Source: Candidatus Omnitrophota bacterium (GTDB taxonomy: Bacteria > Omnitrophota > Gorgyraeia > Duberdicusellales > 4484-171). Taken from it: a stretch of DNA of 64,000 nt. Where the stretch lies: assembly GCA_016935525.1 (NCBI GenBank), contig JAFGQU010000023.1:64897-128896 (forward strand), in the 5' to 3' direction. Of this stretch, positions 6,038-63,170 are shown piece after piece (position 1 is the first letter of the stretch; each line of letters begins with the position of its first letter). The position numbers and the translations under genes were made by a program. The notes under the pieces are model-generated. The model saw only the letters and a program-made list of their open reading frames with translations. It was not told the origin of the DNA and made no database searches.

Positions 6038-6039
6038 GT

Positions 6040-7887
6040 TTATTCCTCCTTTGCGATAGTAAATAAAAACGAATTCCCTTCTTCTTTCGGCTCAACCCAC
6101 ATTTTCCCGCCGTGTTTTTCGACGATCTCTTTGGAAATAAACAATCCCAGTCCCGTTCCTTTTTCCCGCTGCATCTGGGGACGCAGGATACGGGAAAACC
6201 TTTTGAACAATTTTTCTTTATCGGACTCATCTAACGGCACGCCGTCGTTATACACTTCCACCTGAAAACCGGATGGGTTCTTTTTGCCGCTTATGATCAC
6301 GCGGCCTTTGGGCCGTCCGTATTTGAGCGCATTGTTCACAAGATTGTTCGCGACGATTTTCAGCATATCGCAATCGGCATAGACCTGCTGATTCGGACCG
6401 ATGAGGTTGGAGATCGTCATCTGTTTTTCTTCAGCCTGTTTGGCGAACGTATCACAGGCTTCGCTTATCACATCTTCTTTGAGAAGGATCTCGGTTTTAT
6501 GTATATTCAGTTCTCCTTTTTCGATCCGGCTCAGATTAAGAAAATTCTTTACCAGTGCCGCGAGATAATCGAGACTTCTCGTCACCGAATCGAGCGCTTT
6601 ACGCTGTTTGAAGTTGATCATACCCAGAAATCCGTCACGGACCGCATAGGCGTTCAGGATCGCCCCGGAAAGCACGCCTTTTAATTCGTGAGAAACGAAC
6701 CCGATCAGATCAAGATAACTCTTATTCAGCGCGGCCAATTTCTCGTTAGAGACCTCAAGACTCCTTTCCCGTTCGGCAAGTTTCGCGGCCATATCATTGA
6801 ATGAACCGACCAGGCCGTCGAGTTCCTTTACCGACGCCTCGACTTCAAGCGGCGTATGTTCTTCTCCGTCATGGAGTTTTTTGATCATCCGGTTTAACAC
6901 GGAAATCGGCCGGACAATCGAAGAAGCGAGCAGATAGGAAAGACCGCTGGCAAGCAGCGAAGCGATCAAGATCACTCCCAGAAAGACAAAAAGGATGTTC
7001 CGTCTCAATAAGAAAAACGGCTTTTCTAAAATACCTACATATAAGATACCTATGGTTTTCCCGCGCATATCTTTAATCGGTTCATAGGCGGTGAGATACC
7101 AGTCGGTCACGACAAAAGCCCGGTCAAGCCATTTCTCGCCGCGGCCGACGACTTTCTCGTACACCTCGGCCGAAACCCTGGTTCCGATGGCCCGGTGTCC
7201 TTCGGCATCGAGGACATTCGTCGCAATACGCACGTCGTCAAGGAACACCGTAACCGTTCCGATCGGTTTCCCGTCATACAGTTTGCGTTCGAATACTGCG
7301 TCGTTCACTTTATTAATAAAGGTAAAGTTCCGGTTCAGGATCTTACCGCCGTATATCACTCCGGAGGAGGCCCCGTCCCCGTCAAAAAGCGGGACCGCAC
7401 ATTCAAACGCCATCGCTTCATCAAGCTCCTTACGCGTCGAGGCCTGAGCTTTCGGCGTCGGTTTGACCGGGATACGGATCTTATCTTCATAGAGTTTCCC
7501 GTTCATCTTTTTCAACTCTTCCGAAGCGATAAGTCTTACGGCGGAGACCGGTTTTTTCTGTTCTAACGCGGCTTTTACGATCTCACTGGGAATATCGGCC
7601 AGTCTTTCCCGAGGCACGATATAGAGATAATCGAGGTTTAATTTCTTTTTTACGATCTCAGGCTTATCCTGAGCATCCAGGAAGTCGAACGCGGCGTTCA
7701 TCATCTTCAGTTCCCAATAGAACACGGTATGTACCGTTTTCAGATAACTGCGCACCTGTTCCTGGGTCCGTCCGAGGATGAATTTCTCTACCCCGTAAAA
7801 ACCCAGAAGCGCGATCGTTACCCCTAAAAAAATGATGATCGCGAAAAATGCCCGCCGGATTTTAGCTCTTAAAGTGGCCGTCTTCAT
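6040..7887 (-). CDS. Sensor histidine kinase with two TM helices, a periplasmic Cache-like domain of about 260 aa, then HAMP, HisKA and HATPase domains
   Basis: The H-box HELKGVLSGAI and a C-terminal ATPase with GTGLGLFISKEIVEKHGG. The ORF track starts it at 7908, overlapping rex; the internal start MKTATLRA near 7887 avoids that overlap. Confidence 0.8.
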   Translation of the reverse strand: MKTATLRAKIRRAFFAIIIFLGVTIALLGFYGVEKFILGRTQEQVRSYLKTVHTVFYWELKMMNAAFDFLDAQDKPEIVKKKLNLDYLYIVPRERLADIPSEIVKAALEQKKPVSAVRLIASEELKKMNGKLYEDKIRIPVKPTPKAQASTRKELDEAMAFECAVPLFDGDGASSGVIYGGKILNRNFTFINKVNDAVFERKLYDGKPIGTVTVFLDDVRIATNVLDAEGHRAIGTRVSAEVYEKVVGRGEKWLDRAFVVTDWYLTAYEPIKDMRGKTIGILYVGILEKPFFLLRRNILFVFLGVILIASLLASGLSYLLASSIVRPISVLNRMIKKLHDGEEHTPLEVEASVKELDGLVGSFNDMAAKLAERERSLEVSNEKLAALNKSYLDLIGFVSHELKGVLSGAILNAYAVRDGFLGMINFKQRKALDSVTRSLDYLAALVKNFLNLSRIEKGELNIHKTEILLKEDVISEACDTFAKQAEEKQMTISNLIGPNQQVYADCDMLKIVANNLVNNALKYGRPKGRVIISGKKNPSGFQVEVYNDGVPLDESDKEKLFKRFSRILRPQMQREKGTGLGLFISKEIVEKHGGKMWVEPKEEGNSFLFTIAKEE

Positions 7888-8506
7888 GATTTTCTTTCTC
7901 CAGAGCATTCGCGAAATAAATGATCGTCTCCAGTTCCAACCCTAAATTCACATTATGGACCGCGCATTTTTTATCGGTTTTAAGCCGCAAGGGAGCGAAA
8001 TTAACGATGCCGGTTATCCCTTCAGAGATCATGATATTGAATACCTGTTGAGCGGCAATATCGGGGACGGCGATAACGGCAACCTTTATTGTATGTGTTC
8101 GGATAAAATCACGTAACTCATCCAGAGGAAAAATCGGTATCGGAGCTTTACGGTTTATTTTTACCGGATCGATATCGAACCCGGCGGCGATCTGTATCCC
8201 CAGCTGAGGAAACCCTTTATAATTCATAAGCGCACTACCCAGGTGACCGGCTCCCACCACGATCACTTTAGTGATCTTATCTTTCCCCAGGATCTCGTTC
8301 ACTTTGCTTAAGAGATCCTCAATAAGGTAGCCGCCGCGTTTATTACCGGTAATGCCAAAAAACGAAAAATCTTTTCTCACCTGGACCGCGGTAGCCCCCA
8401 CGGCATCAGCAAGGTTATCGGAAAAAATACGGACCAATCCTAAGGACTTAAACCGATACAAAGCATTTTTGTAACGAGATAAGCGGATAATGGGTTTTTT
8501 GTACAT
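7862..8506 (-). CDS. rex: Redox-sensing transcriptional repressor Rex
   Basis: N-terminal winged helix and a Rossmann GxGxxG (VIVVGAGHLGSAL) for NAD(H) binding. It sits immediately upstream of the hydrogenase genes. Confidence 0.85.
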   Translation of the reverse strand: MYKKPIIRLSRYKNALYRFKSLGLVRIFSDNLADAVGATAVQVRKDFSFFGITGNKRGGYLIEDLLSKVNEILGKDKITKVIVVGAGHLGSALMNYKGFPQLGIQIAAGFDIDPVKINRKAPIPIFPLDELRDFIRTHTIKVAVIAVPDIAAQQVFNIMISEGITGIVNFAPLRLKTDKKCAVHNVNLGLELETIIYFANALEKENHEDGHFKS

Positions 8507-8681: not shown

Positions 8682-9944
8682 ATGGCGTATCCGTTGACTA
8701 TTGAAAAAATAGTGTATCCCGGAAGGTCTTTAGGCCGCCGCGAAGGGAAAGTAGTTTTTACCGACGAAGGAGCTCCCGGCGAAACCGTTCTTATTGAACC
8801 GCTTAAAGATAAAAAGACCTATATTGAAGCCAGGACCCTGGAAATACTCACCCCCTCTCCCCGGCGGATACCCCCGCGTTGTACTCACTACAAAATATGC
8901 GCTCCCTACCAGTATCTTGACTACCCGTTTCAGCTTGAAATAAAAAAAGCCCAGCTTAGTGATACATATATCCGGACCCTGAAAACCGCACCTTTGGATA
9001 TCCCACTTACACCGGCTGTTTCTTTGTGGGGATACCGTAATAAAGTGAACTTCTCACTTATTCCCGATAACGGTACTTCTCAATGGGGTTACCATGACCC
9101 GCATCGGCCGGAACACCTGCTCCCTGTCACCGATTGTCACCTGATATCCCCCACAATGAACCGATGTAAAGACAGGATACTGGCATTGCTTGATAAAGAG
9201 CAAAAAGAGGGAATCGAGGAGATCACTCTGCGGGAAAATGCTAAAAGCCAACTGCTCATCCTCCTCAGCATGAAAAAGCCCTCTGTCGATATAAGAAGTA
9301 TCGCGCCGCTCATTGCGAAAGAATTTTCTCTTTCCGGAATAAGTTGCGAATATAAAGGCCGCATCTCTGTGGTTTACGGGCAGGATTATTTCGACGAACA
9401 ATGCGGCAACGTCATCTACCGGGTCGGCGTACATTCTTTTTTCCAGATAAATCGGGACGCGCTTACCTCGATGTTCGATACGATATCGGGATGGCTTGCG
9501 TTATCGGGAAAAGAGACTCTCGTCGATCTTTACTCTGGGATAGGTACGTTCGGCCTTTTTTTTGCCCAAAAAGCTTCCCGGATAATCGCGGTCGAACCGG
9601 AGCTTTCCAATGTATTCTGTTTAGAAGAAAATATCCGCCGCAACCGGATCGATAATGTATCGGTATTTCACTATACCAGCGAACAATGGTTTTCACTTGG
9701 CGATACCGCCGCAATCGATACGCTCATCGTCGACCCGCCGCGTCGAGGATTAGGCCCGTATGTCTGTGAACACATTTTAAAGAAAAGGCCGAAACGGATC
9801 GTCTATGTATCCTGTGATATGAGCACGTTCATACGGGACATCAAAAGCCTGATCGGCTCCTATGGATTAAAACGCCTGGCGGCGTTTGACTTTTTTCCGC
9901 ACACCCCCCACCTTGAACTCTGCGGGCTGCTGGAATTAAAATAG
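8682..9944 (+). CDS. 23S rRNA (uracil-5)-methyltransferase, RlmD/RumA family (TRAM domain plus SAM methyltransferase)
   Basis: SAM motif LVDLYSGIGTFGLFFA and a catalytic DPPRRG box. Cys residues in the N-terminal region fit a TRAM/FeS segment. Confidence 0.75.
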   Translation: MAYPLTIEKIVYPGRSLGRREGKVVFTDEGAPGETVLIEPLKDKKTYIEARTLEILTPSPRRIPPRCTHYKICAPYQYLDYPFQLEIKKAQLSDTYIRTLKTAPLDIPLTPAVSLWGYRNKVNFSLIPDNGTSQWGYHDPHRPEHLLPVTDCHLISPTMNRCKDRILALLDKEQKEGIEEITLRENAKSQLLILLSMKKPSVDIRSIAPLIAKEFSLSGISCEYKGRISVVYGQDYFDEQCGNVIYRVGVHSFFQINRDALTSMFDTISGWLALSGKETLVDLYSGIGTFGLFFAQKASRIIAVEPELSNVFCLEENIRRNRIDNVSVFHYTSEQWFSLGDTAAIDTLIVDPPRRGLGPYVCEHILKKRPKRIVYVSCDMSTFIRDIKSLIGSYGLKRLAAFDFFPHTPHLELCGLLELK

Positions 9945-10053
9945 TCTCTGGTCTACGGTCGACAGCATATAGTTTCCAACTCAAAAAAAAAGATTATTTC
10001 TATTCGCTGACCGCTAGCCGCTAAACGCTATTTTACAAAGGGCTATCGACGGT

Positions 10054-10635: not shown

Positions 10636-11702
10636 GGGGATACTCCTCTTCGGTTTCTTTATAATTCACTTTTGCTTCCAGGTCGCGCAGTTGTTTCGCG
10701 ATATCTTCGAATTCGCTTTTATAGGTCTTTCTTTGTTTCAACGAGTACCCTAAATAGAGGGTTAACGGGAATACTACAAACAGGCCGCCGGTAAGTATCT
10801 GTCCCGGGTATTCTGGAAAAATAAAAAAGGAAACGATAAATAACAGCCAGCACACGACATCAGTAATCCCCGTATACAGAAGGGCCCGGGGAGTACCGCT
10901 GATGATCCGTTTGCCGGCGATGAACAGGAACGGGGCCGGGAAAAATGCGGTCGTATATGTACGCGCCAGATAAATAGTAAGCCCGCAGGCTTCCCCCAGC
11001 ATATCGCAATATATCACTTTTGCCAGGCCGTAAAAAAAGAAGATACTTCCTACGCTGCCGATCAATATCGCGTATCCTCCGAAAAGGTTACCCCATATAT
11101 CGGGGGCATGGCTTCCTTCCAGATGCCTGAGCAGTTCTTCCTGTTTTTCCTTCTGCTTTTTCATGAACAAATGGATAGAATCGCCCGATATGTCCGAAAG
11201 GGTATCTTTCTTTTTCAAAAATTCGTCTAATATTTTTTGAGAACCATATATATATTTTAACAACCATCGTACGGCAAAAAAGAGCAGTACATACCAGGAA
11301 ACATTTCTTAAAAGGTATCCCAGATATATGATTGCTCTCTCGTATACCGTGCGCTCGGGATATCGCCCGAACGCATAGATATGGATTATGGCTAACACGA
11401 TGAAAACCGCAAGCAGTATCGTCTTTACAAACTTGTTGAAGGTAAGCCCGAAAGAAGCTCTCTCCAGAATACCTAACCCGGCGATCAAGAAAAACGGCCC
11501 CGGTAAAAAAAGGATAATCGCCGCGCATACGAACTTTTGCGTACATTCGCTGCCGGGCGAGAAGATCATCGCGCCCAGAGTGGTAAACAAGCCGTAACTA
11601 AAGAAAATCGTCCCGGCTGTGCCAATGATCACCTCTATCGTACCGGCGACCTTAAGTAATAACGGAGGAGATCCCTGGGTATTATGTGAAGGAGTGTTCA
11701 TG
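10625..11702 (-). CDS. Polytopic membrane protein of unknown function with an internal tandem duplication of a module of about 3 TM helices
   Basis: The two halves are alike: GTAGTIFFSYGLFTTLGAMIFSPGSECTQ...FLPGPFFLIAGLGILE versus GSVGSIFFFYGLAKVIYCDMLGEACGL...FFPAPFLFIAGKRIIS. The likely start MNTPSHN at 11702 overlaps the treY stop (ATGA). Confidence 0.5.
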
Positions 11703-21478: not shown

Positions 21479-21639
21479 TATTCGGCCCTATCACGGATCG
21501 CTTTCACTCTCAAAGGATCTACGCTGACGATCTCCAGTAACGCTTCGCATTCGGCGCAATGGAACGTATCGGATGCTTCTAAATCCGATTCCAGATTAAA
21601 CTCTTCCGCGCAGACCGGACATTTTATCTTCGCTATCAT
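21479..21639 (-). CDS. Small 53-aa zinc-ribbon protein resembling LysW/ArgW amino-group carrier proteins. It is absent from the ORF track.
   Basis: Manual reverse-strand translation gives MIAKIKCPVCAEEFNLESDLEASDTFHCAECEALLEIVSVDPLRVKAIRDRAE*. It has a CPxC...CxxC zinc ribbon and an ECEALLEIVSVDPLRV segment closely matching LysW CEDCGAELEVVGLDPLRL, and it ends in a C-terminal Glu. An AGGAGG lies 3 nt before the ATG. Confidence 0.55.
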
Positions 21640-28739: not shown

Positions 28740-28837
28740 TTTTGACAACAACTCTCGACTCCTAGACTATCCTCTATCCGCTCACCGCTAAACGTCCGCC
28801 TTCGGCGAGACCTCGTCCATAGGCTGGCTACCCGCTA

Positions 28838-33398: not shown

Positions 33399-34664
33399 TT
33401 ATTCTTCGGATTTAAATTTATCTTTTATTATCGCCTCGACCCCCCGAAACAAGTTTTTTATGGTCTTCACTGCGGGGTCATCTTCGATATTTTTGATATC
33501 CGTCTCGCCTTTAAGCACCCGGTCCAGCACGTCACCGACATTCTGCATCGTAAGCTGCTGCAGACGTGCTGTTACCTGCCCCATATCGATAGAAGGATGG
33601 TCGAGCTTTGTCTTAAGCGGCGGCAAATTGAAGTAAGGATTATCATCCTTTTTTTTTAACGCGGCTAGGGCATTTTGGAGTGACTCGACTTTATCCGGCC
33701 TTAACGGATCGTTTTTGAACGCTACATCTTCAAACATCACTTCACCGGAGATAACAAGATCGTTATCGGCGGCTCTTAACTCTACAAGCAAAGAAAGGAA
33801 CGCCTGTTCCAGGTCGAGGTCATAAGCTTTAAACCCGCGCGAGTACTGTTTATCAAAAGTAAGATAATCATAACGGTCTACTTTCACCTGCGCTTCCATA
33901 TTTTTATAAAACCAATCGAGCCAACCGTCGGCTTTTAAGATATCGGGCATTTTTCTTGTTTCGGTCTCCATAGATGCCGAAACATCAAAATAGAACATCA
34001 ACAATTTCGGCAGGTTAAAATCCTTCAGCTTAACGTTGGTATCTTTCAAGGTGAATTCAAGCGGCGGGACAAAAGTATAATCGGTATAGGCAAGAGTTAT
34101 CTGTTTCAGTAATATTTCTCTGATGATAAGGGAAAAAGGGATATCTCTTTTCGGCACAGCCGAAGCGGTTAAGGGGCTTGAAATATCGACTTTACGGTTC
34201 ACGTCGACCTGATCCAATAACGGAGCGTCTTTTGAGGCCGCGATCTTGTAGCGCCAGAACGGTTCAATCGTCACCTCGTCTCTTTGCCGGACGACCTGGA
34301 CTTTAAGGCCGTCTATCTGGAGCCGGCTGAATATAGGGGTAACCGGATCGAACTTTACTCTCTCAAGTCTAAGATATGCGTGAGAAAAAGAGACATCACC
34401 GCAGGAGAAATCGCTGATAACCAGAGTAAACGGAAATGAAAGTTTTATCTGTTTTATTTCGGCCTGGACGCCATAGGTAGTGGATAAATAAGACTCTATA
34501 AAACTCTTCCCCTGACTGTTCACATAGATCATCAAACCCACATAACTGATTACGATCAACACAACGGCAACAACAACAAGCGCGAGAATAAGTTTACCTA
34601 ATTTTTCTATCATTTCATTCCCCTTTTCATTGTACAGTACAAAAAATAAATACCGAATTTTCAA
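33399..34664 (-). CDS. Membrane-anchored protein of unknown function (AsmA-like?)
   Basis: N-terminal TM LILALVVVAVVLIVISYVGLMIYV, then a 380-aa soluble region with no recognized catalytic motif. Confidence 0.35.
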   Translation of the reverse strand: MKIRYLFFVLYNEKGNEMIEKLGKLILALVVVAVVLIVISYVGLMIYVNSQGKSFIESYLSTTYGVQAEIKQIKLSFPFTLVISDFSCGDVSFSHAYLRLERVKFDPVTPIFSRLQIDGLKVQVVRQRDEVTIEPFWRYKIAASKDAPLLDQVDVNRKVDISSPLTASAVPKRDIPFSLIIREILLKQITLAYTDYTFVPPLEFTLKDTNVKLKDFNLPKLLMFYFDVSASMETETRKMPDILKADGWLDWFYKNMEAQVKVDRYDYLTFDKQYSRGFKAYDLDLEQAFLSLLVELRAADNDLVISGEVMFEDVAFKNDPLRPDKVESLQNALAALKKKDDNPYFNLPPLKTKLDHPSIDMGQVTARLQQLTMQNVGDVLDRVLKGETDIKNIEDDPAVKTIKNLFRGVEAIIKDKFKSEE

Positions 34665-34819
34665 CGCGTTTCGCGTGTCGCGTTACGCGTTACGATAAAG
34701 ACAGCGCGCCCGGCATTCTTCGTCATGCGTAACGCGTTCTGCGTAACGCGTGAAGAAAAATAAAAACCAAGTTTTCAACGCGTGTCGCGTTACTCGTTAC
34801 GCGTTACGATAAAAACAAC
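34664..34819. repeat. Two tandem copies of a CGTTACGCG-rich element of about 55-100 bp downstream of tRNA-Arg. The distal copy carries a fragment of the tRNA-Arg 3' end.
   Basis: 34664-34716 is ...cgcgttacgcgttacgataaagacaGCGCGCCCGGCA, against 34770-34830 ...cgcgttactcgttacgcgttacgataaaaacaaCGCGCCCGGCAGGG (the true tRNA end). The shared block gaagaaaaataaaaaccaagttttcaacgcg precedes both. Confidence 0.7.
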
Positions 34820-34893
34820 GCGCCCGGCAGGGATCGAACCTGCCACATTCTGCTTAGAAGGCAGATGCTCTATCCAAATGAGCTACGGGCGCA
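34820..34893 (-). tRNA. tRNA-Arg (TCT)
   Basis: Reverse complement GCGCCCG-TA-GCTC-ATTTGGATA-GAGC-A-TCTGC-CTTCTAA-GCAGA-ATGTG-GCAGG-TTCGATC-CCTGC-CGGGCGC-G. Anticodon TCT. CCA is not encoded. Confidence 0.85.
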
Positions 34894-35074
34894 TAATAGC
34901 TAATGGCGTACAGCCAATGGCTAATGTTAGCAAAGAACCTCGATGGCATATTACCATGAGTCCATTAAAATCCAAATGCTCAATGAGGCTTACGCTTTTT
35001 AGAGCCAGCAGCGAATAAAAAGCGTGTAGTCGAATTAGTCCCGCGTATCCCCGCGGGAAGCTACGGGCGCAAAA

Positions 35075-35168
35075 AGCGTCACGCGTTCTGCGTCATGCGT
35101 AACGCGTGAAGAAAAATAAAAACCAAGTTTTCAACGCGGTACGCGTTACTCGTTACGCGTTACGAAAT
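35075..35168. repeat. Third copy of the CGTTACGCG-rich element, immediately downstream of tRNA-Pro
   Basis: cgtcacgcgttctgcgtcatgcgtaacgcgtgaagaaaaataaaaaccaagttttcaacgcggtacgcgttactcgttacgcgttacga is near-identical to 34720-34808. Confidence 0.7.
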
Positions 35169-35246
35169 TGGTCGGGGCGACAGGATTTGAACCTGTGACA
35201 TCTTGGTCCCAAACCAAGCGCTCTAGCCAGGCTGAGCCACGCCCCG
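35169..35246 (-). tRNA. tRNA-Pro (TGG)
   Basis: Reverse complement CGGGGCG-TG-GCTC-AGCCTGGCTA-GAGC-G-CTTGG-TTTGGGA-CCAAG-ATGTC-ACAGG-TTCAAAT-CCTGT-CGCCCCG-A-CCA. Anticodon TGG. CCA is encoded. Confidence 0.85.
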
Positions 35247-35499: not shown

Positions 35500-35580
35500 C
35501 CTCGCATCGCTGTCACCCCTGAAGATTCTCACAAAAGAAATTTCTTCACGTGTGACTATGTGACCTTGTGTCGTGTGACC
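35500..35580. repeat. GTCACA-family element with right (TGTGAC) arm only
   Basis: cacgTGTGACtaTGTGACctTGTGTCgTGTGACc. Confidence 0.6.
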
Positions 35581-35603
35581 TTTATCATCCGCTTCTATAT
35601 ATA

Positions 35604-36206: not shown

Positions 36207-36214
36207 GACTTTAC

Positions 36215-36330
36215 CATGTCACACGTTGCACGTCACACGACACACGTATCTTCTTTGCGTATGACTCTGTGACCATGTGACTTTGTGACTCGCCGAAGGC
36301 AGATGTGTGACTTTGTGACCATGTGACTTT
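36215..36330. repeat. GTCACA-family composite element (left GTCACA array, right array of 6 TGTGAC units)
   Basis: atGTCACAcgttgcacGTCACAcgacacacg ... ctcTGTGACcaTGTGACttTGTGACtcgccgaaggcagatgTGTGACttTGTGACcaTGTGAC. Confidence 0.7.
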
Positions 36331-36332
36331 TG

Positions 36333-37070: not shown

Positions 37071-37078
37071 TCTTGTAA

Positions 37079-37180
37079 GTCACACGCTTGTCTACCGACA
37101 AGCTAGTCACAAGGTTACATCGTCACATGTCAAAATATCTCTTACTACGTGTGACGTGTGTCGTGTGACTATGTGACGTT
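37079..37180. repeat. GTCACA-family composite element
   Basis: aGTCACAcg...taGTCACAag...cGTCACAtg ... cgTGTGACgTGTGTCgTGTGACtaTGTGACg. Confidence 0.7.
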
Positions 37181-37182
37181 TT

Positions 37183-37716
37183 TTACTCGCTACTTGTTCC
37201 TAGCCGTTCGTAGATATCGTTTCCCTGGGTGTCGATCGCCACGATAAGCGGAAATTTTTCGACTTCGAATTCAAACACCGCTTCAGCCCCCAGATCACCG
37301 AAGGCGATAAGTCTATATGATGTAATACGGTTTCGCAGATATGCCGCGCACCCGGCATGAGTCACAAAGTAGACTCTTTTATATTCTTTACATAACTGGC
37401 GCATTGCCGGCTCGCGCTGTCCTTTACCGATCGTCGCGGCGACACCTTGAATGTACATGGCTTTCATATACACATCCATCCGGCTTGCCGTAGTAGGCCC
37501 GCACGCGCCCAGAGTATCCCCTTTTATATTCGGGCCGCAATAATAAATAATCTTATTTTTCAAATCTAAAGGAAGCGCCTGGGTACGACCGAGGAGCTCG
37601 ATAAACCGTTGATGCGCCCGGTCACGTGCCGTATAGACCGTCCCGTTCAAAAGCACCACCTGCCCCGCCTTAAGACTAATTAAATCTTTTTCCGATAACG
37701 GTGTCTTTAATTCCAT
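37183..37716 (-). CDS. Class I fumarate hydratase / L(+)-tartrate dehydratase beta subunit (Fe-S hydro-lyase C-terminal domain)
   Basis: 177 aa. GPTTASRMD and HAGCAAY-type motifs of the FumA C-terminal / TtdB family. Confidence 0.7.
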   Translation of the reverse strand: MELKTPLSEKDLISLKAGQVVLLNGTVYTARDRAHQRFIELLGRTQALPLDLKNKIIYYCGPNIKGDTLGACGPTTASRMDVYMKAMYIQGVAATIGKGQREPAMRQLCKEYKRVYFVTHAGCAAYLRNRITSYRLIAFGDLGAEAVFEFEVEKFPLIVAIDTQGNDIYERLGTSSE

Positions 37717-37720
37717 ATTC

Positions 37721-37858
37721 TATTCCTTATATAGAAATACAGTTGAAATACGATGGAAATATGTCCCTGAAGAGACGAAATACATTGTAAAAACAATTGC
37801 ATTTCATGAGCGATAGCGAGTATATTTCGCGAAGCATATTTCTATATATTTCAAAAAT
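37721..37858. repeat. GAAATA-family composite element (GAAATA direct repeats, a central palindrome, TATTTC inverted repeats) lying between the fumarase beta and alpha genes
   Basis: taGAAATAcagttGAAATAcgatgGAAATAtg...GAAATAcattgtaaaaacaattgcatttc...gagcgatagcgagTATATTTCgcgaagcaTATTTCtaTATATTTCaaa. It shares the blocks gagcgatagcgagtatatttc and atatatttcaaa with 56977-57112. Confidence 0.7.
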
Positions 37859-38678
37859 CCCTGATTGTGGCACTCGCGCTGCGTAACGCGTGACAACTTA
37901 TATTTACCCCGACGGGAAGCCCGGCGATATGAGTAGGCGCTGTCTTTATTTTTACCGCAAGACAGGTATATTTCCCGCCTAATCCCATCGGCCCAATATG
38001 CAACGCGTTGATCTTTTCATAAAGCGATGTTTCCCATTTTCCGGCCGATGTATCGCGCGCCGGCCGGTCTATCCGGCCGATTAACGCTTCTTTCGCCAAA
38101 AGCAGACACGAATCGGATGTGCCGCCTATACCCACCCCCACGACATAAGGAGGACATGCGTCGCATCCGGCTTTTCTTACCGCTTCAACGATGAATTCGT
38201 CGATACTTTCTCTGGATACGGTCGGATTGAACATCTTCAGTTGAGATTTATTTTCCGAACCGAACCCTTTAGGGAAAACGGTAATGGTAAAGCCTTTCTT
38301 CCTGGTAAACCCTATATGAGTTATATAAGGGCTATAAGAAAGATGCCGGTCCGAATCGATAGTCGAAGCACGGAAGCCATATTCGGCATACCCCTGATCG
38401 ATCCCTTCCTGGATAGCGTCGATGAGCGCGCGGCTTATTTTCACATCAGCTCCGGCCTCTAAGAAAACTATCGGCAATCCTGTATCCTGACACAACGCGA
38501 TACGCCGCGCGCGGGCGATACGGGCATTCTCAAGAATAACGCCTAAAGCCTCTTGCGCCTGCCGGTTATCTTCATCCTGATAGGCGGTCCGGAGCAGTCC
38601 GGCCACATCTTTACGTAATTCGGTATTGGCTTTTACTACGAGTTTTTTTACCGTACTGACGATTTTTTTCCTGTTCAT
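37851..38678 (-). CDS. Class I fumarate hydratase / tartrate dehydratase alpha subunit (Fe-S hydro-lyase N-terminal domain)
   Basis: CQDTGLPIVFLEAG plus the Cys ligands of the FumA N-terminal / TtdA family. Confidence 0.7.
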   Translation of the reverse strand: MNRKKIVSTVKKLVVKANTELRKDVAGLLRTAYQDEDNRQAQEALGVILENARIARARRIALCQDTGLPIVFLEAGADVKISRALIDAIQEGIDQGYAEYGFRASTIDSDRHLSYSPYITHIGFTRKKGFTITVFPKGFGSENKSQLKMFNPTVSRESIDEFIVEAVRKAGCDACPPYVVGVGIGGTSDSCLLLAKEALIGRIDRPARDTSAGKWETSLYEKINALHIGPMGLGGKYTCLAVKIKTAPTHIAGLPVGVNISCHALRSASATIRDF

Positions 38679-45141: not shown

Positions 45142-45217
45142 TCTTTTAATAGTCGTTCGTCGTCAGTCGATAGTATTTAGTCGAAAAAAGAAACTCAAAA
45201 TTCTAAAACTGTTTGGG

Positions 45218-45312
45218 ATTTTGGTAATTGGGATTTTCCCGATCCTTAGCATCTTTATTTAGCGGGATCCCGCCAGAGACGGGAATTTAGGATTTCGTGC
45301 TTCGGATTTATT
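45218..45312. repeat. AATCC / AAGCACGAAAT-family element immediately downstream of the malK-like gene
   Basis: gGGATTttggtaattGGGATTttccc...gggaatTTAGGATTTCGTGCTTCGGATTtat. Confidence 0.65.
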
Positions 45313-45317
45313 TTCAA

Positions 45318-48515: not shown

Positions 48516-48787
48516 TTGTTCTCTTGTTTAGGACAATTATCACAAGATGAGCCTGAGCCGTCACAGGAAGATTGGCCGGATTTCTTACTGTCGGTGGATG
48601 GATCCTTTTTCTTATAATCGGTACTATAAAATCCCGACCCTTTAAAGATCAACCCCATACCGGCACCGATCAACCGTTTTACTTTCCCCTTACATGAAGG
48701 GCAGCTTTTTAACGGCTTATCCGTCATCTTCTGAAACGCTTCAAACCGGTTTCCGCATTCTAAACATTCATAATCATACGTCGGCAT
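48512..48787 (-). CDS. FmdB-family zinc-ribbon putative regulatory protein with a Cys-rich tail
   Basis: MPTYDYECLECGNRFE...CPSCKG is the FmdB signature. Confidence 0.75.
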   Translation of the reverse strand: MPTYDYECLECGNRFEAFQKMTDKPLKSCPSCKGKVKRLIGAGMGLIFKGSGFYSTDYKKKDPSTDSKKSGQSSCDGSGSSCDNCPKQENK

Positions 48788-48817
48788 CTCACTCGCCTCC
48801 TTTATCTTTTATTGTCG

Positions 48818-48926
48818 GCGAAAATCCGAAATCCGAATATCGAAATCCTAAACGGAATTCGTTTGAGAAATTAGGATTTTGGTCATTCGAATTTGTTTCG
48901 AAATTCGAATTTCGTGCTTCGTTTTT
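48818..48926. repeat. AATCC / AAGCACGAAAT-family element between the dnaJ 3' end and the FmdB-family zinc-ribbon gene
   Basis: gAAAATCCGAAATCCGAAtatcgAAATCCTAAacggaattcgtttgagaaattaggattttggtcattcgaatttgtttcgaaattcgAATTTCGTGCTTCG. Confidence 0.65.
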
Positions 48927-48929
48927 TCT

Positions 48930-50048
48930 TCAGAGTTCTTTGCGTAATTTCCCCAATTCGGTCAAAAGAGCTTTCTCTTTTGCCGAAAGGTTTTTAGGGA
49001 TTACTATTTCGACTTCAACGAATTCATCACCCTGACGTTTAGTCCGGTAATCGAGCACGCCTTTTCCTTTAAGACGGAACACGCTGCCGTTCTGAGTCCC
49101 GGCCGGGATCTTCATCTGAACTTTACCGGCAAGCGTCGGCACTTCTATCTCACCGCCCAAGGCGGCTTTCACCATGGTCACGCTCACTTTGCATTTCAAA
49201 TTACTCCCCTGCCGCTGAAAGACAGGATGTCTGGAAACGACAATATGCAAAAAAAGGTCGCCGTATCCGGCGACTCCGGCATTCCCTTCGTTACGCAGCC
49301 GGACAATCGATCCGTTATCCACGCCCGCGGGGATCTTTACGCTTACTTTCTTATTCGCTTTCGTTTTTCCCTGCCCGTGACACTGGGTACACGGTTTTTC
49401 GATCATCTGGCCGGTCCCCTGACAACGGACACACGGCTGGCTTAACGTGAAAAAACCCATTCCGCTGGTCACCTGGCCAGAGCCGCGGCATCCTGAACAC
49501 ACTATTTTTTTTGAACCGGGTTCGGCACCCTGCCCCTGACAACGGGTACAATGTTCAAACCGGGGGAACGTGATCGTCCGTTCGACGCCGCCGGCGGCAT
49601 CCGGAAGCGTGATCTCTATTTCATAATGGATGTCTTTTCCTTGTCCGCGGGAAGTTCTACCTCCTCCACGGCCGCCGAAGATATCAAAACCAAGATCACT
49701 AAAAAAATCACCGAATATATTCTCGGCACCGCCGCCACCGCCGAACCCCATATCCCGGAATATCGTACTGAAATCGGCGCCACGGAAAATATCTTCGGTA
49801 GAATACCGGGAATCTATCCCGGCATGGCCGTACTGATCATATAATTTACGTTTCTTTTCATCGCTCAATACGGCATAGGCTTCGGAAACCTCTTTAAACT
49901 TTTCCTCAGCCGCTTTCTTCTTCTCTTCCGGCACCCGGTCGGGATGCGTCTGCATGACAAGCTTACGGTAAGCTTTCTTTACCTCGTCCGGCGAGGCGCC
50001 TTTAGCTACTCCCAAAATTTCGTAATAATCACGTTGGGTACTCATCAT
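48930..50048 (-). CDS. dnaJ: Chaperone DnaJ
   Basis: J-domain with HPD, G/F region, four CxxCxGxG repeats. Confidence 0.95.
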   Translation of the reverse strand: MMSTQRDYYEILGVAKGASPDEVKKAYRKLVMQTHPDRVPEEKKKAAEEKFKEVSEAYAVLSDEKKRKLYDQYGHAGIDSRYSTEDIFRGADFSTIFRDMGFGGGGGAENIFGDFFSDLGFDIFGGRGGGRTSRGQGKDIHYEIEITLPDAAGGVERTITFPRFEHCTRCQGQGAEPGSKKIVCSGCRGSGQVTSGMGFFTLSQPCVRCQGTGQMIEKPCTQCHGQGKTKANKKVSVKIPAGVDNGSIVRLRNEGNAGVAGYGDLFLHIVVSRHPVFQRQGSNLKCKVSVTMVKAALGGEIEVPTLAGKVQMKIPAGTQNGSVFRLKGKGVLDYRTKRQGDEFVEVEIVIPKNLSAKEKALLTELGKLRKEL

Positions 50049-50054
50049 AGCTCA

Positions 50055-50145
50055 CGCACGTCACAAAGTCACAAGGTCACATAGTCACAGGTTGAAGAGA
50101 GATTTTTCTCCCCACGTGTGACGTGTGACATGTGTCGTGTGACCT
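50055..50145. repeat. GTCACA-family composite element between dnaK and dnaJ (four GTCACANN units facing four TGTGAC units)
   Basis: GTCACAaaGTCACAagGTCACAtaGTCACAgg-N21-cacgTGTGACgTGTGACaTGTGTCgTGTGACc. The left arm is identical to 52222-52253. Confidence 0.75.
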
Positions 50146-50148
50146 TTT

Positions 50149-52221: not shown

Positions 52222-52330
52222 GTCACAAAGTCACAAGGTCACATAGTCACAGGTATAGAAAATTTTATTCGTGTGACGTGCTTGCCCCGTTGTCGCCAGA
52301 CTCACGGGTGTGACCTGTGTCGTGTGACTC
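52222..52330. repeat. GTCACA-family composite element at the grpE 3' end. Its right arm is interrupted by 25 nt and overlaps the last roughly 20 grpE codons.
   Basis: GTCACAaaGTCACAagGTCACAtaGTCACAgg...cgTGTGACgtg[cttgccccgttgtcgccagactcac]gggTGTGACcTGTGTCgTGTGACtc. Confidence 0.75.
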
Positions 52331-53691: not shown

Positions 53692-53718
53692 TTAGCACTC
53701 TATCAATCAGAGTGCCAG
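53692..53718 (-). promoter_or_regulatory. CIRCE operator (HrcA binding site) for the hrcA-grpE-dnaK-dnaJ operon
   Basis: The minus strand reads CTGGCACTC-tgattgata-GAGTGCTAA, against the consensus TTAGCACTC-N9-GAGTGCTAA. Confidence 0.8.
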
Positions 53719-54131: not shown

Positions 54132-54236
54132 ATTCCTCCTTCCTGCCGGCAAAGGCCCGGTAGACATCTCGCCATTGTTAAAACTGATCGAATGGTATTA
54201 TCACACAGCTTGAAAGTTTATTCAAGAACTACCTGT

Positions 54237-54372
54237 GAAAATCCAAAGCACGAAATCCTAAATCCTAAACAAATTCCAAATCCTAATGTTCAAAACAGAT
54301 TCCGTTTGAGAATTTAGGATTTTCTTCATTTGTTTCGAGTTTCGGAATTCGGATTTAGAATTTAAACCGCGT
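54237..54372. repeat. AATCC / AAGCACGAAAT-family element immediately downstream of clpB
   Basis: aAAATCCaAAGCACGAAATCCTAAATCCTAAacaaattccAAATCCTAAtgttcaaaacagattccgtttgagaatttaggattttcttcatttgtttcgagtttcggaattcggatttagaa. It shares cgtttgagaaNttaggatttt with 48818-48926. Confidence 0.65.
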
Positions 54373-54379
54373 CCGAATG

Positions 54380-56956
54380 TTATTTCTTCTTAAACACCAG
54401 CTTATGTTTCTGCTCATCGATGACGACTTTATCTCCTTCGGAAAACTTGCCTTGAAGGATATCGATACTTAACGGGTTGATGATCATTTTCTGGATCGTC
54501 CGTTTGACCGGCCGGGCTCCGTATTCGGGGCTATATCCCTTATCGGCGATAAAATCACGGGCCCGATTAGTCAGTTCTAAACCGATATTTTTCTTTAAAG
54601 TGCGTTTCTTTAATATCTCCATCTGAATATCGACGATATCCCGGATATGCGCGAGTTCAAGGCTGTTGAACACGATAATCTCATCAAGCCGGTTTAGAAA
54701 TTCCGGCCGGAAATGATTTTTCAGTTCTCTCCTGATCCGTTCGTCAATGATCTTTTTATCCAGAGTAATATCGTTGAATATCTCGCTGCCGATGTTAGAC
54801 GTGAGAATGACGACGGTATTACGGAAGTTCACGGTGCGTCCCTGCGAATCGGTAAGTTTTCCTTCATCCAATACCTGCAGGAGTATGTTGAATACATCCG
54901 CGTGAGCTTTTTCTATTTCATCGAACAGGACCACCGCGTAAGGCCGGCGCCGTACGGCTTCGGTCAACTGCCCGCCTTCTTCATATCCCACGTATCCCGG
55001 AGGCGCGCCGATAAGCCGCGATACAGAAAACTTTTCCATATATTCGCTCATGTCGATACGTATCAAGTTCTGTTCGCTGTTAAACAGAAACCAGGCCAGC
55101 GTCTTTACCAGTTCGGTCTTCCCTACGCCGGTAGGCCCTAAAAACAGAAACGACCCTAACGGCCGGTGAGGATCGGATAACTCCGCGCGTGACCGGCGGA
55201 TACAATCGGCGATAAGCTCGATCGCGTTATCCTGGCCGACGACCCGTTTTTTCAGCTCATCTTCCATCCGGATAAGTTTTTCCATTTCCGCTTCGATAAG
55301 TTTTGAGACCGGTACCCCGGTCCATTTAGAGACTATCTCGGCGATATCTTCCTCATCGACTTCTTCTTTAAGCATTTTCGTCGTTTGCTGGATCTCGTTC
55401 AGTTCTTTATTCAATGTATCCAGTTGTGAAGTAAGAAGAGGGACCTGGCCGTACCGGATCTCGGCGACCTTTTCCAATCGCGCCTGTTTCTGATATTCGG
55501 CGGCTTCCAGCTTCAGTTTTTCCAGTTTCTCTTTGGTATCCCTGATCCGGGTGATCACATCTTTCTCTTTCTGCCAATGCGACTTAAGCGATCCCAACTC
55601 TTCCTCTAACTTCTCGATATCTTCCGCTAACTTACTTAACCGCTCTTTCGCCGCCGGGTCGGTCTCTTTTTTAAGGACCTGTTTCTGGATTTCCAGTTCC
55701 ATCTTTTTACGTTCGATCTTATCGATCTCTTCCGGTTTAGAATCTATCTCGATACGCAATTTCGATGCCGCCTCATCGATAAGGTCGATAGCTTTATCGG
55801 GAAGGAACCGTTCGGTAATATACCGGTCCGAAAGTACGCTCGCGGCGATGATCGCCGAATCCGTTAATCGCACCCCGTGATGCACTTCATATTTCTCCTT
55901 CAACCCGCGTAAAATAGCTATGGTCTGCTCGACATTCGGTTCGGATACATATACCTGCTGGAACCTTCGCTCGAGCGCGGCGTCTTTCTCGATATGTTTA
56001 CGGTACTCATCGAGCGTCGTCGCTCCGATACAGCGTAACGTGCCGCGGGCCAATGCCGGTTTCAGCATGTTGGACGCGTCGATGGACCCCTCAGATGCGC
56101 CGGCCCCGACTAACGTATGCAATTCATCGATAAAAAGGATCAATTGTCCTTCTTTCGATTCGATCTCTTTTAACACGCTTTTAAGCCGTTCTTCAAACTC
56201 ACCGCGGAATTTACTCCCGGCGACAAGAGCGCCCATATCCAAGGCGATTATCTTTTTCTCTTTCAGGATTTCGGGAACGTCGCCCGAAGCAATACGCTGA
56301 GCCAATCCTTCGACGATCGCCGTCTTACCGACCCCGGGTTCACCGATAAGCACCGGATTATTTTTTGTCCGGCGGGAAAGCACCTGGATCACCCTGCGGA
56401 TCTCCTCATCTCTGCCGATGACCGGATCGAGTTTACCTTTTCTTGCAACTTCGGTCAAATCGCGGCTGTATTTTTCTAACGCCTGATAGGTCTCCTCTGC
56501 CATCGGGGAATCGGCATGGTGCGAACCACGCAAAGACTGGGTGAGCGAAGACAGTTCATCAAAAGAATATCCCTGTTTACGTAAATAGTTAAAAAACAGG
56601 CTGTCTTTCTCTTTCGCAATCCCCAAAAGGAGATGTTCGCTACTCACAAACGAATCATTGAATTTTTTGGCAAAACTTTCGGCGTTATTGATAATATCCT
56701 TAAGACGCCCCGACGCATACGCAGCGCCTGGACCCTGCACTTTCGGCTGAGAGGCAAGAAACTGACGGACCCCGGCGGTAAGATCGCTTGCGTCTATCCC
56801 GGACCGGATAATGATATCCCGGCATATCCCCGGTTCTTCCATAAGCGCCGCCAGAACGTGTTCAGGAAGAAGCGCTTGATGGTTCAATTTTGCCGCCAAC
56901 TGTACGGCTTTACTCATTGATTCCTGTGCTTTTAAAGTAAATTTTTCTAAATTCAT
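54380..56956 (-). CDS. clpB: ATP-dependent chaperone ClpB
   Basis: Two AAA+ modules ([16 protein letters not shown]), a long middle coiled-coil domain. 858 aa. Confidence 0.95.
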
Positions 56957-56976
56957 ACTTTGATTACTCCTATTAT

Positions 56977-57112
56977 TTAGAAATACATAGAAATAAGAAG
57001 AAATTCACCGAAGAATTTCATAGAAATATGGTGGAAATACAATTGTATTTCGCGTGAGCATATTTCGCGAGCGATAGCGAGTATATTTCCATATATTTCA
57101 AATCACGTTTGT
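56977..57112. repeat. GAAATA-family composite element between clpB and the rhomboid gene
   Basis: aGAAATAcataGAAATAagaaGAAATtcaccgaaGAATTTCataGAAATAtggtgGAAATACAATTGTATTTCgcgtgagcaTATTTCgcgagcgatagcgagTATATTTCcaTATATTTCaaa. Confidence 0.7.
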
Positions 57113-57134: not shown

Positions 57135-57800
57135 TCAATACTGTACACTTCTCTTACGCACAAAAACCTTTACGAAGATGATCCCTGCGACAAACCCTCC
57201 GACATGCGCCCAGAACGCGACGCCGGTTGAATCCGGAATCCCTAACGACGATAGCCCTAAAAAGAACTGATATAAAAACCAGACCCCTAAAAAGAACGGT
57301 GCCGGTATTTCCACTATTTGCCAGAAGATAAAAAACGGCAGAAGCGTAAGTACCCGCGCCCGCGGAAACAGAAGGAAATATCCTCCGAGGACCCCGGCAA
57401 TCGCGCCGCTTGCGCCGATTGCGGGTATCGTCGAATCCAGGTTAACCAATCCGTGGATAACGGACGCGGCAATCCCGCAGATAAAATAAAAGATCAAAAA
57501 CTTTCCATGCCCTAACCGGTCTTCGACGTTATCGCCGAAAATCCAGAGATACAGGCAATTTCCCAACACATGCCATACCCCGGCATGAAGGAACATATTG
57601 GTAAAGAACGGATATATTTTTTCAAATATCCCGACCGGAAGCTGAAGGCGGTACGGGATAAACCCGAACGTATGTACAAACGCCTCCAGCTGCGGGCCCA
57701 ACGATATCTCATAGAAGAACACGATGAGGTTTATCGCAAAAAGCGTTATCGTGACCACCGGCTGAGTACGGTGAGGGATATTATCGCGTAAAGGTATCAT
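57135..57800 (-). CDS. Rhomboid family intramembrane serine protease
   Basis: Six TM helices, GASGAIAGVLG (catalytic Ser) and AHVGG (catalytic His). Confidence 0.8.
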   Translation of the reverse strand: MIPLRDNIPHRTQPVVTITLFAINLIVFFYEISLGPQLEAFVHTFGFIPYRLQLPVGIFEKIYPFFTNMFLHAGVWHVLGNCLYLWIFGDNVEDRLGHGKFLIFYFICGIAASVIHGLVNLDSTIPAIGASGAIAGVLGGYFLLFPRARVLTLLPFFIFWQIVEIPAPFFLGVWFLYQFFLGLSSLGIPDSTGVAFWAHVGGFVAGIIFVKVFVRKRSVQY

Positions 57801-57902
57801 TTTCCGTCGTTAGTCGATCGTCGTTGGTCGTTCGTATAAGGATATCGGGACAGGGTTACGGGTACCGAGAATACCCGAAACCCTGCACCCTGTACCCGAA
57901 CA

Positions 57903-58447: not shown

Positions 58448-58474
58448 TTAGCACTCATAACAATAGACTGCCAA
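58448..58474 (-). promoter_or_regulatory. Degenerate CIRCE-like inverted repeat upstream of hsp20
   Basis: TTAGCACTC-ataacaata-GACTGCCAA. The left half is perfect; the right half matches 6 of 9. Confidence 0.4.
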
Positions 58475-58867: not shown

Positions 58868-58982
58868 CTCATCCTTTTTATATCATATATCAAAATTTCT
58901 GTCAAGATATTTCTTGAAAATTTTTTAGTTTTTTATTAAAAACGCAAGCGTTTACAATGAAAAAAGTCAATAAATAAAAGGT

Positions 58983-62990: not shown

Positions 62991-63040
62991 TTTCCGTCCG
63001 CCTTTTGTTCCGTTTTTTATATACTGTATTTTCGGCCGCC

Positions 63041-63084
63041 GCGCGGGATGAGAGTCACACAGTCACATGGTCACATGTCACACG
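63041..63084. repeat. GTCACA-family half element (left arm only)
   Basis: GTCACAcaGTCACAtgGTCACAtGTCACAcg. Confidence 0.6.
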
Positions 63085-63170
63085 TAAAGAAAAAACTGTG
63101 GTTAAGCTCTCTGAAAATAGATCTTTTGCGTTATACTACGGACCACAGACTATGGACTACAGGCCATCGA

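Follow-up and report, generated by a model that had tools for sequence, protein, structure and literature searches.

Two blocks of repeated GAAATA hexamers lie in spacers between minus-strand genes in a 64,000-nt stretch (hereafter, the window) of a Candidatus Omnitrophota metagenome-assembled genome (MAG). We think that these blocks are probably copies of a small, non-autonomous foldback insertion element that resembles repetitive extragenic palindromic (REP) sequences, bacterial interspersed mosaic elements (BIMEs) and miniature inverted-repeat transposable elements (MITEs), and that would be co-transcribed within the operons where it sits. Members of the family occur in a subgroup of Candidatus Omnitrophota. 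It is dispersed, shows insertion polymorphism and variable orientation, has no orthologous conservation, is predicted to fold strongly and contains no promoter or terminator consensus.

Copy 1 (37717-37858, minus strand) occupies the entire spacer between fumA and fumB and overlaps the fumA stop codon. Copy 2 (56975-57112, minus strand) lies in the spacer between a rhomboid protease gene and clpB. The initial annotation of the window had placed two GAAATA-array elements at these loci, between co-directional minus-strand genes. Hexamer clusters were indeed found there, Pfam confirmed both gene pairs, and no other strong cluster exists in the window. The motif GAAAT[AGT] reaches 8 and 11 occurrences per 150 nt at these two loci only, and a weaker cluster of five matches (48861-49011) belongs to a different family. 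In total, the window contains 94 GAAATA hexamers, compared with 68.7 ± 8.4 in shuffled sequences, and none of 100 shuffles reached 94. In copy 1, GAAATA is found on the plus strand at 37734, 37745, 37756 and 37777 and on the minus strand at 37823, 37837 and 37847, with an imperfect CATTTC at 37800. In copy 2, the plus-strand positions are 56980, 56990, 57023 and 57034, with GAAATT at 57000, and the minus-strand positions are 57046, 57061, 57084 and 57094. The hexamers are spaced by 10-11 nt in the outer portions of the arms in both copies. The repeat unit is 10-11 nt long with a GAAATA core, and not GAAATA(N) as first proposed. Both elements are about 135-140 nt long, with a GC content of 0.30-0.31 and phased A-tracts.

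The two copies align with 76% identity, and their local alignment score was 65, compared with 17.3 ± 2.8 for shuffled sequences. The expectation that they share identical blocks was borne out by an exact 21-mer, GAGCGATAGCGAGTATATTTC, which is common to 37808-37828 and 57069-57089 on the plus strand. This 21-mer lies outside the hexamer motif, and shuffled sequences gave 0.00 matches to it even when three mismatches were allowed. Independent Logan assemblies of SRR13394437 contain both copies, copy 1 at 100% identity in one contig (L001) and copy 2 in another (L079). Therefore, neither copy is an assembly artefact.

Read on the sense strand from 37858 to 37717, copy 1 has the structure TTTTTGAAATATATAGAAATATGCTTCGCGAAATATACTCGCTATCGCTCATGAAATGCAATTG-TTTTTA-CAATGTATTTCGTCTCTTCAGGGACATATTTCCATCGTATTTCAACTGTATTTCTATATAAGG, and copy 2, read from 57112 to 56975, follows the same plan. 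Arm 1 of copy 1, TTTTTGAAATATATAGAAATATGCTTCGCGAAATATACTCGCTATCGCTCATGAAATGCAATTG (37794-37857, minus strand), comprises four units with a GAAAT core, terminates in CAATTG and includes the fumA stop codon; this TGA (37851-37853) is within the first conserved block. Arm 2 (37725-37787, minus strand) is an inverted array of four TATTTC cores with spacings of 21, 11 and 11 nt, and it ends about 8 nt ahead of the AAGGA ribosome-binding site of fumB. The corresponding arms of copy 2 are GATTTGAAATATATGGAAATATACTCGCTATCGCTCGCGAAATATGCTCACGCGAAATACAATTG (57040-57104, minus strand) and an inverted TATTTC array (56977-57045, minus strand) that includes an internal GAAATTC/GAATTTC hairpin. A perfect central palindrome had been proposed for both copies. 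In copy 2 it is perfect, comprising the 18 nt GAAATACAATTGTATTTC at 57034-57051, where the arms join tail to tail at CAATTG, although it does not start at 57036 as had been thought. In copy 1 it is imperfect: the centre (37777-37805) reads GAAATACATTG-TAAAAA-CAATTGCATTTC, and its halves, GAAATACATTG and GAAATGCAATTG, differ by one mismatch and one indel. The shared 21-mer is joined to another array unit in copy 2 than in copy 1, which represents a modular shuffle. Its GAGCGATAGCGAG portion in copy 1 resembles a TAGCGG-array family described below, and this likeness points to a putative mosaic make-up.

The initial annotation had recommended RNA structure prediction, and this gave strong folds for both elements. 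On the sense strand, the folding energy was -33.2 kcal/mol for copy 1 (z = -4.67) and -34.4 kcal/mol for copy 2 (z = -5.40); the antisense z-scores were -3.45 and -3.50, respectively. In the predicted shape, the terminal hexamer units make up an outer stem and the CAATTG palindrome a central hairpin, to which a small side hairpin is added. In copy 1, the central hairpin of the minimum-free-energy fold is formed by the imperfect palindrome. The side hairpin is GUCUC-UUCA-GGGAC in copy 1 (37763-37776, minus strand) and GAAAUUC-UUCGGU-GAAUUUC in copy 2 (57000-57019, minus strand), so that a UUCA or UUCGGU loop occurs at the same relative place. Because the spacers between the hexamers are mostly without complementarity, the predicted stem is interrupted. 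In the predicted fold, the inverted arm pair could form one long hairpin, as REP doublets can. The sense strand folds better than the antisense strand in both copies. As a test of RNA-level selection, this comparison is not decisive, since the sense strand was better in only eight of 11 array elements.

The proposal of a composite repeat family was supported by three further members, all on other Omnitrophota contigs. We scanned the GTDB representative genomes, a collection that does not include the source genome, with the terminal 20-mer TTTGAAATATATRGAAATAT. Among 36 matches, there was one true member, L020, which lies between a ydjC-like gene and lgt in a MAG. Four Omnitrophota matches (L004, L018, L023 and L035) looked like a conserved UP-element or promoter, but were rejected because they represent the 3′ terminus of a coding gene that is conserved and whose product begins MKNYWN. 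The remaining matches, about 30, were single chance matches in unrelated taxa. A metagenome scan gave 37 matches, two of which were members on contigs from Hainich groundwater: L048, between uppS and cdsA, and L056, between ispG and proS. The other 35 were unrelated, mostly one human-gut sequence. The IspG relatives of L056 place it in Omnitrophota. No match to the element was found in a viral-contig scan or by BLAST against plasmids, and about 4 kb beyond the window, recovered from Logan contigs, contained no new copy. L021, a Bacteroidia MAG, carries one-directional GGAAATA arrays with a spacing of about 10 nt; they have neither an inverted partner nor the shared blocks, and were therefore not counted as members. 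These arrays (3049-3123 and 6677-6743) adjoin gene starts, and a AGTCACGAAGTCACGAAG array is also present in L021. Short phased spacer arrays are thus not confined to Omnitrophota.

Altogether, the family has five copies at unrelated loci in at least two organisms. They are non-coding and 105-140 nt long, and so resemble MITEs in being shorter than about 300 nt, non-coding and present in several copies. The 33-mer TTTGAAATATATAGAAATATGCTTCGCGAAATA, which forms the first 33 nt of arm 1 of copy 1, is identical in copy 1, L048 and L056, and L020 matches the copy 1 block at 36 of 37 positions. L048 and L056 are near-identical, except that entire 11-nt units have been gained or lost, and they have opposite orientations relative to their flanking genes. 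We aligned the ten arms of the five members. Each arm is 40-65 nt long and comprises three to five tandem units with a GAAAT(A) core and a terminal GAAATWCAATTG; the units are 10-11 nt long, with the fuller core (T)AGAAATA(T). Columns identical in all ten arms fall mostly within the GAAAT cores, and the spacers vary. The arms join tail to tail at CAATTG in the window copies and in L020, and head to head at TATTTCTATATG|TTTGAAATATATAGAAATA in L048 and L056, which is a circular permutation of the same parts. An interspersed CTCGCTATCGCTC block resembles the TAGCGG-array family, and a GAATTTCGA module in L048 and L056 resembles a GGATTT family of the window.

Insertion was seen most directly at the ispG-proS junction. 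L084, an Omnitrophota MAG from NCBI, encodes an IspG 94% identical to that of L056. Its junction reads ...AAATATATAA-T-ATGCGCTGG... (stop TATATAA, then T, then ATG), and at exactly this point L056 has 136 extra nucleotides, with flanks about 95% identical to those of L084. The two genomes thus provide an empty and a filled site, the presence/absence polymorphism expected of MITEs. Similarly, the gap between uppS and cdsA is only 1-4 nt in three relatives, whereas in L048 the element fills a gap of 105 nt.

These observations bear on the possibility that the elements never moved, but are immobile intercistronic hairpins that grew in place by slippage and fold-back template switching, with motifs that became similar by convergence. 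Unit-number variation between copies does show slippage, and an array with its inverse, or a hairpin, is present in almost every co-directional spacer longer than 80 nt in the window and the relatives. On this view, mRNA punctuation or stability would require a stem-loop in the operon spacers of this clade, and the somewhat better sense fold of both copies agrees with it. Convergence, however, cannot yield an exact 33-nt match and a non-core 21-mer at unrelated loci in different organisms. Moreover, the L056 block appears all at once where a relative with 94% identity has stop-T-ATG, and the array spacer of L075, another relative, folds no better than random (z = -0.24). We therefore consider growth in place improbable.

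Orthologous spacers in relatives gave a consistent picture of turnover. The gene order queE-fumA-fumB-rph-ham1 is kept, and the content of the fumA-fumB spacer differs each time. It comprises GAAATCG/GGATTT arrays in L075 (FumB 75% identical to that of the window), a direct TAGCGG array in L080 (68%), a plain hairpin in L076 (61%) and a TAAGTC array with its inverse in L081 (59%). In L083, the closest relative found (ClpB 84% identical), the rhomboid-clpB spacer contains a TAGCGG array and its inverse (TAGCGG/CCGCTA). The ispG-proS slot, empty in L084 and occupied by a GAAATA element in L056, contains a REP-like palindrome in L085 and an ACAAAT array with its inverse in L086. The L085 repeat, a near-perfect 58-nt palindrome (CTCTCCACCTACGCGGTGTAAAAATATATTTTTACACCGCGTAGGTGGAGAG), occurs at least four times in 12 kb (2256-2383, 6004-6143, 7654-7747 and 11066-11157), with one copy in this slot. 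Unrelated palindromic families use the same spacer slots across relatives. It had also been suggested that copy 1 splits the fumarase genes. This description needs to be revised, as fumA and fumB form separate open reading frames (ORFs) in all relatives examined, about 20-100 nt apart. The element fills this existing spacer and adds the stop codon of fumA. The C-terminal tail encoded by fumA was different in each relative compared.

Aligned with their orthologous spacers, the window elements scored only 11-14, compared with 14-16 for shuffled sequences. For the same genome pair, the spacer with the promoter of the merR gene scored 137 and a spacer with a CIRCE-like repeat scored 74, compared with 16-19 when shuffled. 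Therefore, regulatory DNA is conserved at these distances and the GAAATA elements are not. The promoter in question, TTGACA-17-TATAAA (58878-58920, minus strand), heads the gene run merR-hsp20-rhomboid-clpB, in which clpB is the last gene, and the gene directly after it encodes a 103-aa MerR-family regulator. Its region is about 90% conserved in L083 (at about 8190-8235). An inverted repeat, TCAAGAAATATCTTGA, overlaps this promoter, and from its sequence the arrangement looks like an HspR/HAIR-type heat-shock operator. CIRCE-like repeats are located before hrcA-grpE-dnaK-dnaJ (53692-53717, minus strand) and before hsp20 (58448-58474, minus strand); the CIRCE-like sequences of the window are TGGCACTC-N9-GAGTGCTAA and TTGGCAGTC-N9-GAGTGCTAA. 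Heat-shock control of clpB through copy 2 was considered and rejected: no sequence similar to CIRCE or HAIR occurs in the element, which the closest relative lacks.

The same comparison is relevant to the view that the phased GAAATA cores are an operator or enhancer array of a dedicated DNA-binding protein that controls fumB and clpB, with paralogous factors for the other motifs as the initial annotation had suggested. The 10-11 nt spacing would place the cores on one face of the helix, the cores are conserved and the spacers variable, both window copies end 15-25 nt 5′ of a ribosome-binding site, and the layout is common to several motif families. On the other hand, the orthologous spacers of relatives share no sequence conservation with the elements although real operators nearby are conserved, and no sigma-70-like promoter was detected in the elements on which such a factor could act. 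Furthermore, the genes beside the five members (fumB, clpB, cdsA, proS and lgt) have unrelated functions, both orientations occur, and one copy (L056) was recently inserted between two genes that are translationally coupled. An operator array is thus unlikely, and from this analysis the GAAATA cores would be unlikely operators of a regulon.

It is more improbable still that the elements are AT-rich promoter regions, UP-element-like or curved DNA, which provide separate starts for fumB and clpB. Their low GC content, phased A-tracts and position directly 5′ of start codons resemble such regions, and the L056 insertion must still permit expression of proS, which is assumed to be essential. However, no sigma-70-like hexamer pair was present in the two window elements on either strand, whereas 1.2 were expected, and such sites in L048 and L056 were at the chance level. 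The sequence is also not conserved in relatives, and the TTGACA-17-TATAAA promoter upstream of merR-hsp20-rhomboid could serve clpB. The initial annotation had named, as the alternative to a repeat family, just two simple AT-rich promoter regions conserved in relatives; we found more than two copies, no sigma-70-like promoter and no positional conservation. Intrinsic terminators (a GC-rich stem followed by a U-tract) were absent from the gene strand of either element, whose stems are AT-rich. The Rfam 15 covariance models, applied with their gathering scores, gave no match to the elements, and their only matches in the window were three tRNAs. A sigma-54-like TGGCAC-N5-CTGC (37868-37882, plus strand) beside copy 1 is probably due to chance, because it is antisense within fumA and has no counterpart beside copy 2.

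Several observations nevertheless weigh against a mobile insertion element. At the L056/L084 pair there is no target-site duplication, with at most 1 nt (A) ambiguous at the junctions, and no crisp terminal inverted repeat. The insert ends, ATCAATTAATTTC and ATCAGTAACTTTA, matched at nine of 13 positions when compared by eye. The evidence for mobility comprises one empty site at the sequence level together with the comparisons of gap sizes. Few copies could be counted (two in 68 kb of source-genome sequence), and a hidden Markov model of the arm, searched with nhmmer in about 150 kb of Omnitrophota DNA, revealed no extra or solo arms. No transposase or RAYT domain was present in the Pfam matches of the 53 listed window genes, of which six have no Pfam match. 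The GC content is about 47% in the window and 40-41% in the L020, L048 and L056 contigs, and the presence of the family in these organisms may reflect either shared ancestry or transfer. In addition, the 10-11 nt phasing of the cores would equally be expected from a DNA-binding regulator or from bent DNA.

If the blocks are insertion elements, the way in which they act may be outlined as follows. GAAATA elements are found where co-directional genes are separated by very short spacers, and their position is often directly at the stop codon. From this position, the element would become part of the polycistronic transcript, in which the predicted branched stem-loop may form. It would be mostly a tolerated genomic parasite. 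Any effect might be similar to those of REP or Correia elements, that is, protection of mRNA 3′ ends, processing, or uncoupling of the flanking cistrons; on this model, an effect on the fumA/fumB and rhomboid/clpB expression ratios is plausible. The GAAATA cores would most likely be multiple binding sites of a mobilising or maintaining protein, comparable to those at the ends of Tn7, Mu and foldback elements, because the cores stay conserved while the spacers drift.

Small palindromic insertion elements within operons are well known. To our knowledge, arms of phased tandem core copies have not been described in Omnitrophota, and none of the best 10 of 6,430 full-text literature matches on this phylum and intergenic or palindromic repeats mentions Omnitrophota. 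The Correia/NEMIS elements of Neisseria, the ERIC/IRU elements of enterobacteria and the RUP elements of pneumococcus are bounded by defined terminal inverted repeats and, as a rule, by a TA target duplication. The GAAATA elements resemble them as imperfect palindromes of 100-150 nt that are intra-operonic and co-transcribed, with presence/absence polymorphism in close relatives. They differ from these elements in that the arms of the latter are not tandem arrays, and in that the L056/L084 pair has no target-site duplication. In the Drosophila foldback (FB) element and the ends of Tn7, Mu and Ac/Ds, a repeated short motif is the transposase binding site. Inverted arms made of a tandem or phased short motif are common to these systems and the GAAATA family; this resemblance is architectural only, and those elements are eukaryotic or much larger, with known transposases. 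The GATAAT hexamers of Fur, the heptads of the omega repressor and the ParR-parC iterons overlap a promoter, keep orthologous positions and adjoin the regulator gene. They also comprise several 6-11 nt units in direct and inverted order, and the period of parC is 10-11 nt, but the promoter overlap, orthologous position and adjacent regulator gene do not hold for the GAAATA elements.

There is also a likeness in layout to REP, REPIN and BIME sequences, which are likewise short, non-coding and intergenic, and are found mostly in co-directional spacers just 3′ of ORFs (PMC3733652, PMC3116915). The mosaic logic of BIMEs and REP dimers combines inverted units with two types of junction and with filler motifs (PMC3733652), and the GAAATA elements also have inverted unit pairs that form a larger hairpin, head-to-head as well as tail-to-tail junctions and mosaic filler motifs. 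Both lack a target-site duplication, and both are plausibly RNA hairpins. However, a REP unit is itself an imperfect palindrome of 20-40 nt, whereas a GAAATA arm is a direct array of 10-11 nt units and only the arm pair is palindromic. At one end, REP and REPIN units bear an unpaired tag, GTAG or CGTC (PMC3733652), and the GAAATA arms have no consistent tag of this kind: the window arms begin with TTTGAAATA or TATAGAAATA, and GTAGAAATA is limited to some inner units of L020 and L048. REP doublets are mobilised by a RAYT (a Y1 transposase), whose single-copy gene is flanked by the repeats, and a genome contains tens to hundreds of them. The GAAATA family is also AT-rich, has a low copy density where measurable, and no RAYT was seen among the listed window genes. 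Cyanobacterial STRR heptamers and the palindromic microsatellites of fungal and algal organelles are intergenic short tandem motifs as well, sometimes palindromic, and their presence varies between close relatives, so that they are suspected to be mobile (PMC7218506). They are found in other hosts and have other motifs; STRR sequences are contiguous heptamers, and in Fusarium the elements consist of (A)n/(T)n runs (PMC7218506).

A wider interpretation, which we regard as possible and rather doubtful, is that the GAAATA family is one member of a clade-wide Omnitrophota system in which palindromic tandem-array elements colonise most operon spacers. The initial annotation had pointed out that GTCACA arrays have the same layout of an array followed by an inverted array; this was observed, and the layout extends to several other motif families of the window, among them GGATTT, TAGCGG and ACGAC, and is seen in relatives as well. 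Motif families shared within the clade, such as TAGCGG in the window, L076, L080 and L083, fit a limited repertoire of element families, as judged from sequence. Such a repertoire would include GAAATA, GTCACA, TAGCGG, GGATTT, ACGAC, TAAGTC, ACAAAT and GTAGAGA, whose elements would replace each other at the same slot. They might be moved by paralogous sequence-specific mobilisers, each binding the phased array of its own short motif, or might arise through hairpin-templated repeat expansion and copying. If this system is real, a general mechanism would be at work that has not yet been described, and these bacterial elements would share the construction of foldback transposons of eukaryotes.

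Next to nothing has been characterised of the non-coding DNA of the uncultivated Omnitrophota. Should the GAAATA blocks be insertion elements as we favour, much of the operon-spacer DNA in this phylum may consist of palindromic insertion elements with fast turnover. Annotators would then be cautioned against taking such AT-rich blocks for promoters or operators. Turnover of the elements could account for the variable C-terminal tails and stop codons of neighbours such as fumA, and the elements might serve as strain-level markers. Arms of phased tandem cores are unusual among bacterial elements of the REP/MITE type; if a mobiliser is found, they would allow multi-site end recognition, or a new way of hairpin-repeat formation, to be studied in a tractable system.

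The genes next to the two window copies were assigned as follows. The alpha subunit of class I fumarate hydratase is encoded by fumA (37851-38678, minus strand; PF05681, E = 2e-87) and the beta subunit by fumB (37183-37716, minus strand; PF05683, E = 1e-50), which lies 3′ of copy 1 and whose product is 100% identical to an NCBI protein. Copy 2 is preceded on its 5′ side by the rhomboid protease gene (57135-57800, minus strand; PF01694) and followed on its 3′ side by clpB (54380-56956, minus strand), which was identified by Pfam and by a 100% match of its product, P0121, to a protein named ClpB. Two in-frame stop codons were observed within genes of relatives that are conserved apart from this, a TGA in place of Leu in fumA of L080 (about 131-133) and a TAA that replaces Glu early in proS of L084 (about 2170). 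Sequencing errors, pseudogene formation or recoding might explain them.

Other array families were also recorded. At least six window spacers (35520-35603, 36207-36332, 37071-37182, 50049-50148, 52222-52264 and 63030-63090) contain GTCACA(nn) arrays of 8-nt period with inverted TGTGAC arrays after them, and several of these are predicted to fold strongly, with z-scores down to -5.3. Their layout is that of the GAAATA family, and their motif and period differ. A GGATTT/AAATCC family (GAATTTCG) is common to the window organism and other Omnitrophota; its arrays are found at 45142-45317, 48800-48929 and 54225-54379 in the window, 1795-1893 in L075, 12578-12748 in L083 and 1370-1410 in L056. A module of the GGATTT type is fused to the GAAATA element in L048 and L056. 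TAGCGG(n) arrays, with a 7-nt period, recur in operon spacers and where convergent genes end (window 9945-10053 and 28740-28837; L080 about 225-265; L083 9917-10000; L076 about 9895-9915), and in L076 and L080 such an array enters the 3′ end of the fumA reading frame. Arrays of the CGTAACGCG type (34607-35165) flank the tRNA genes at 34819-34892 and 35172-35246 (minus strand), and an 89-nt unit is repeated three times within this region. The ACGAC(n) arrays CGACTGACGACGAACGAC and ACGAACGACCAACGACGATCGACTAACGACGG (45142-45175 and 57801-57835) lie just 5′ of two start codons.

Two small zinc-ribbon ORFs were found in apparent spacers of the window (48518-48787 and 21481-21639, both minus strand). 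One encodes a 90-aa CxxC...CxxC protein of the FmdB-like type. The second specifies a LysW-like protein of 53 aa and lies beside ATP-grasp, GNAT and lysine-2,3-aminomutase genes.

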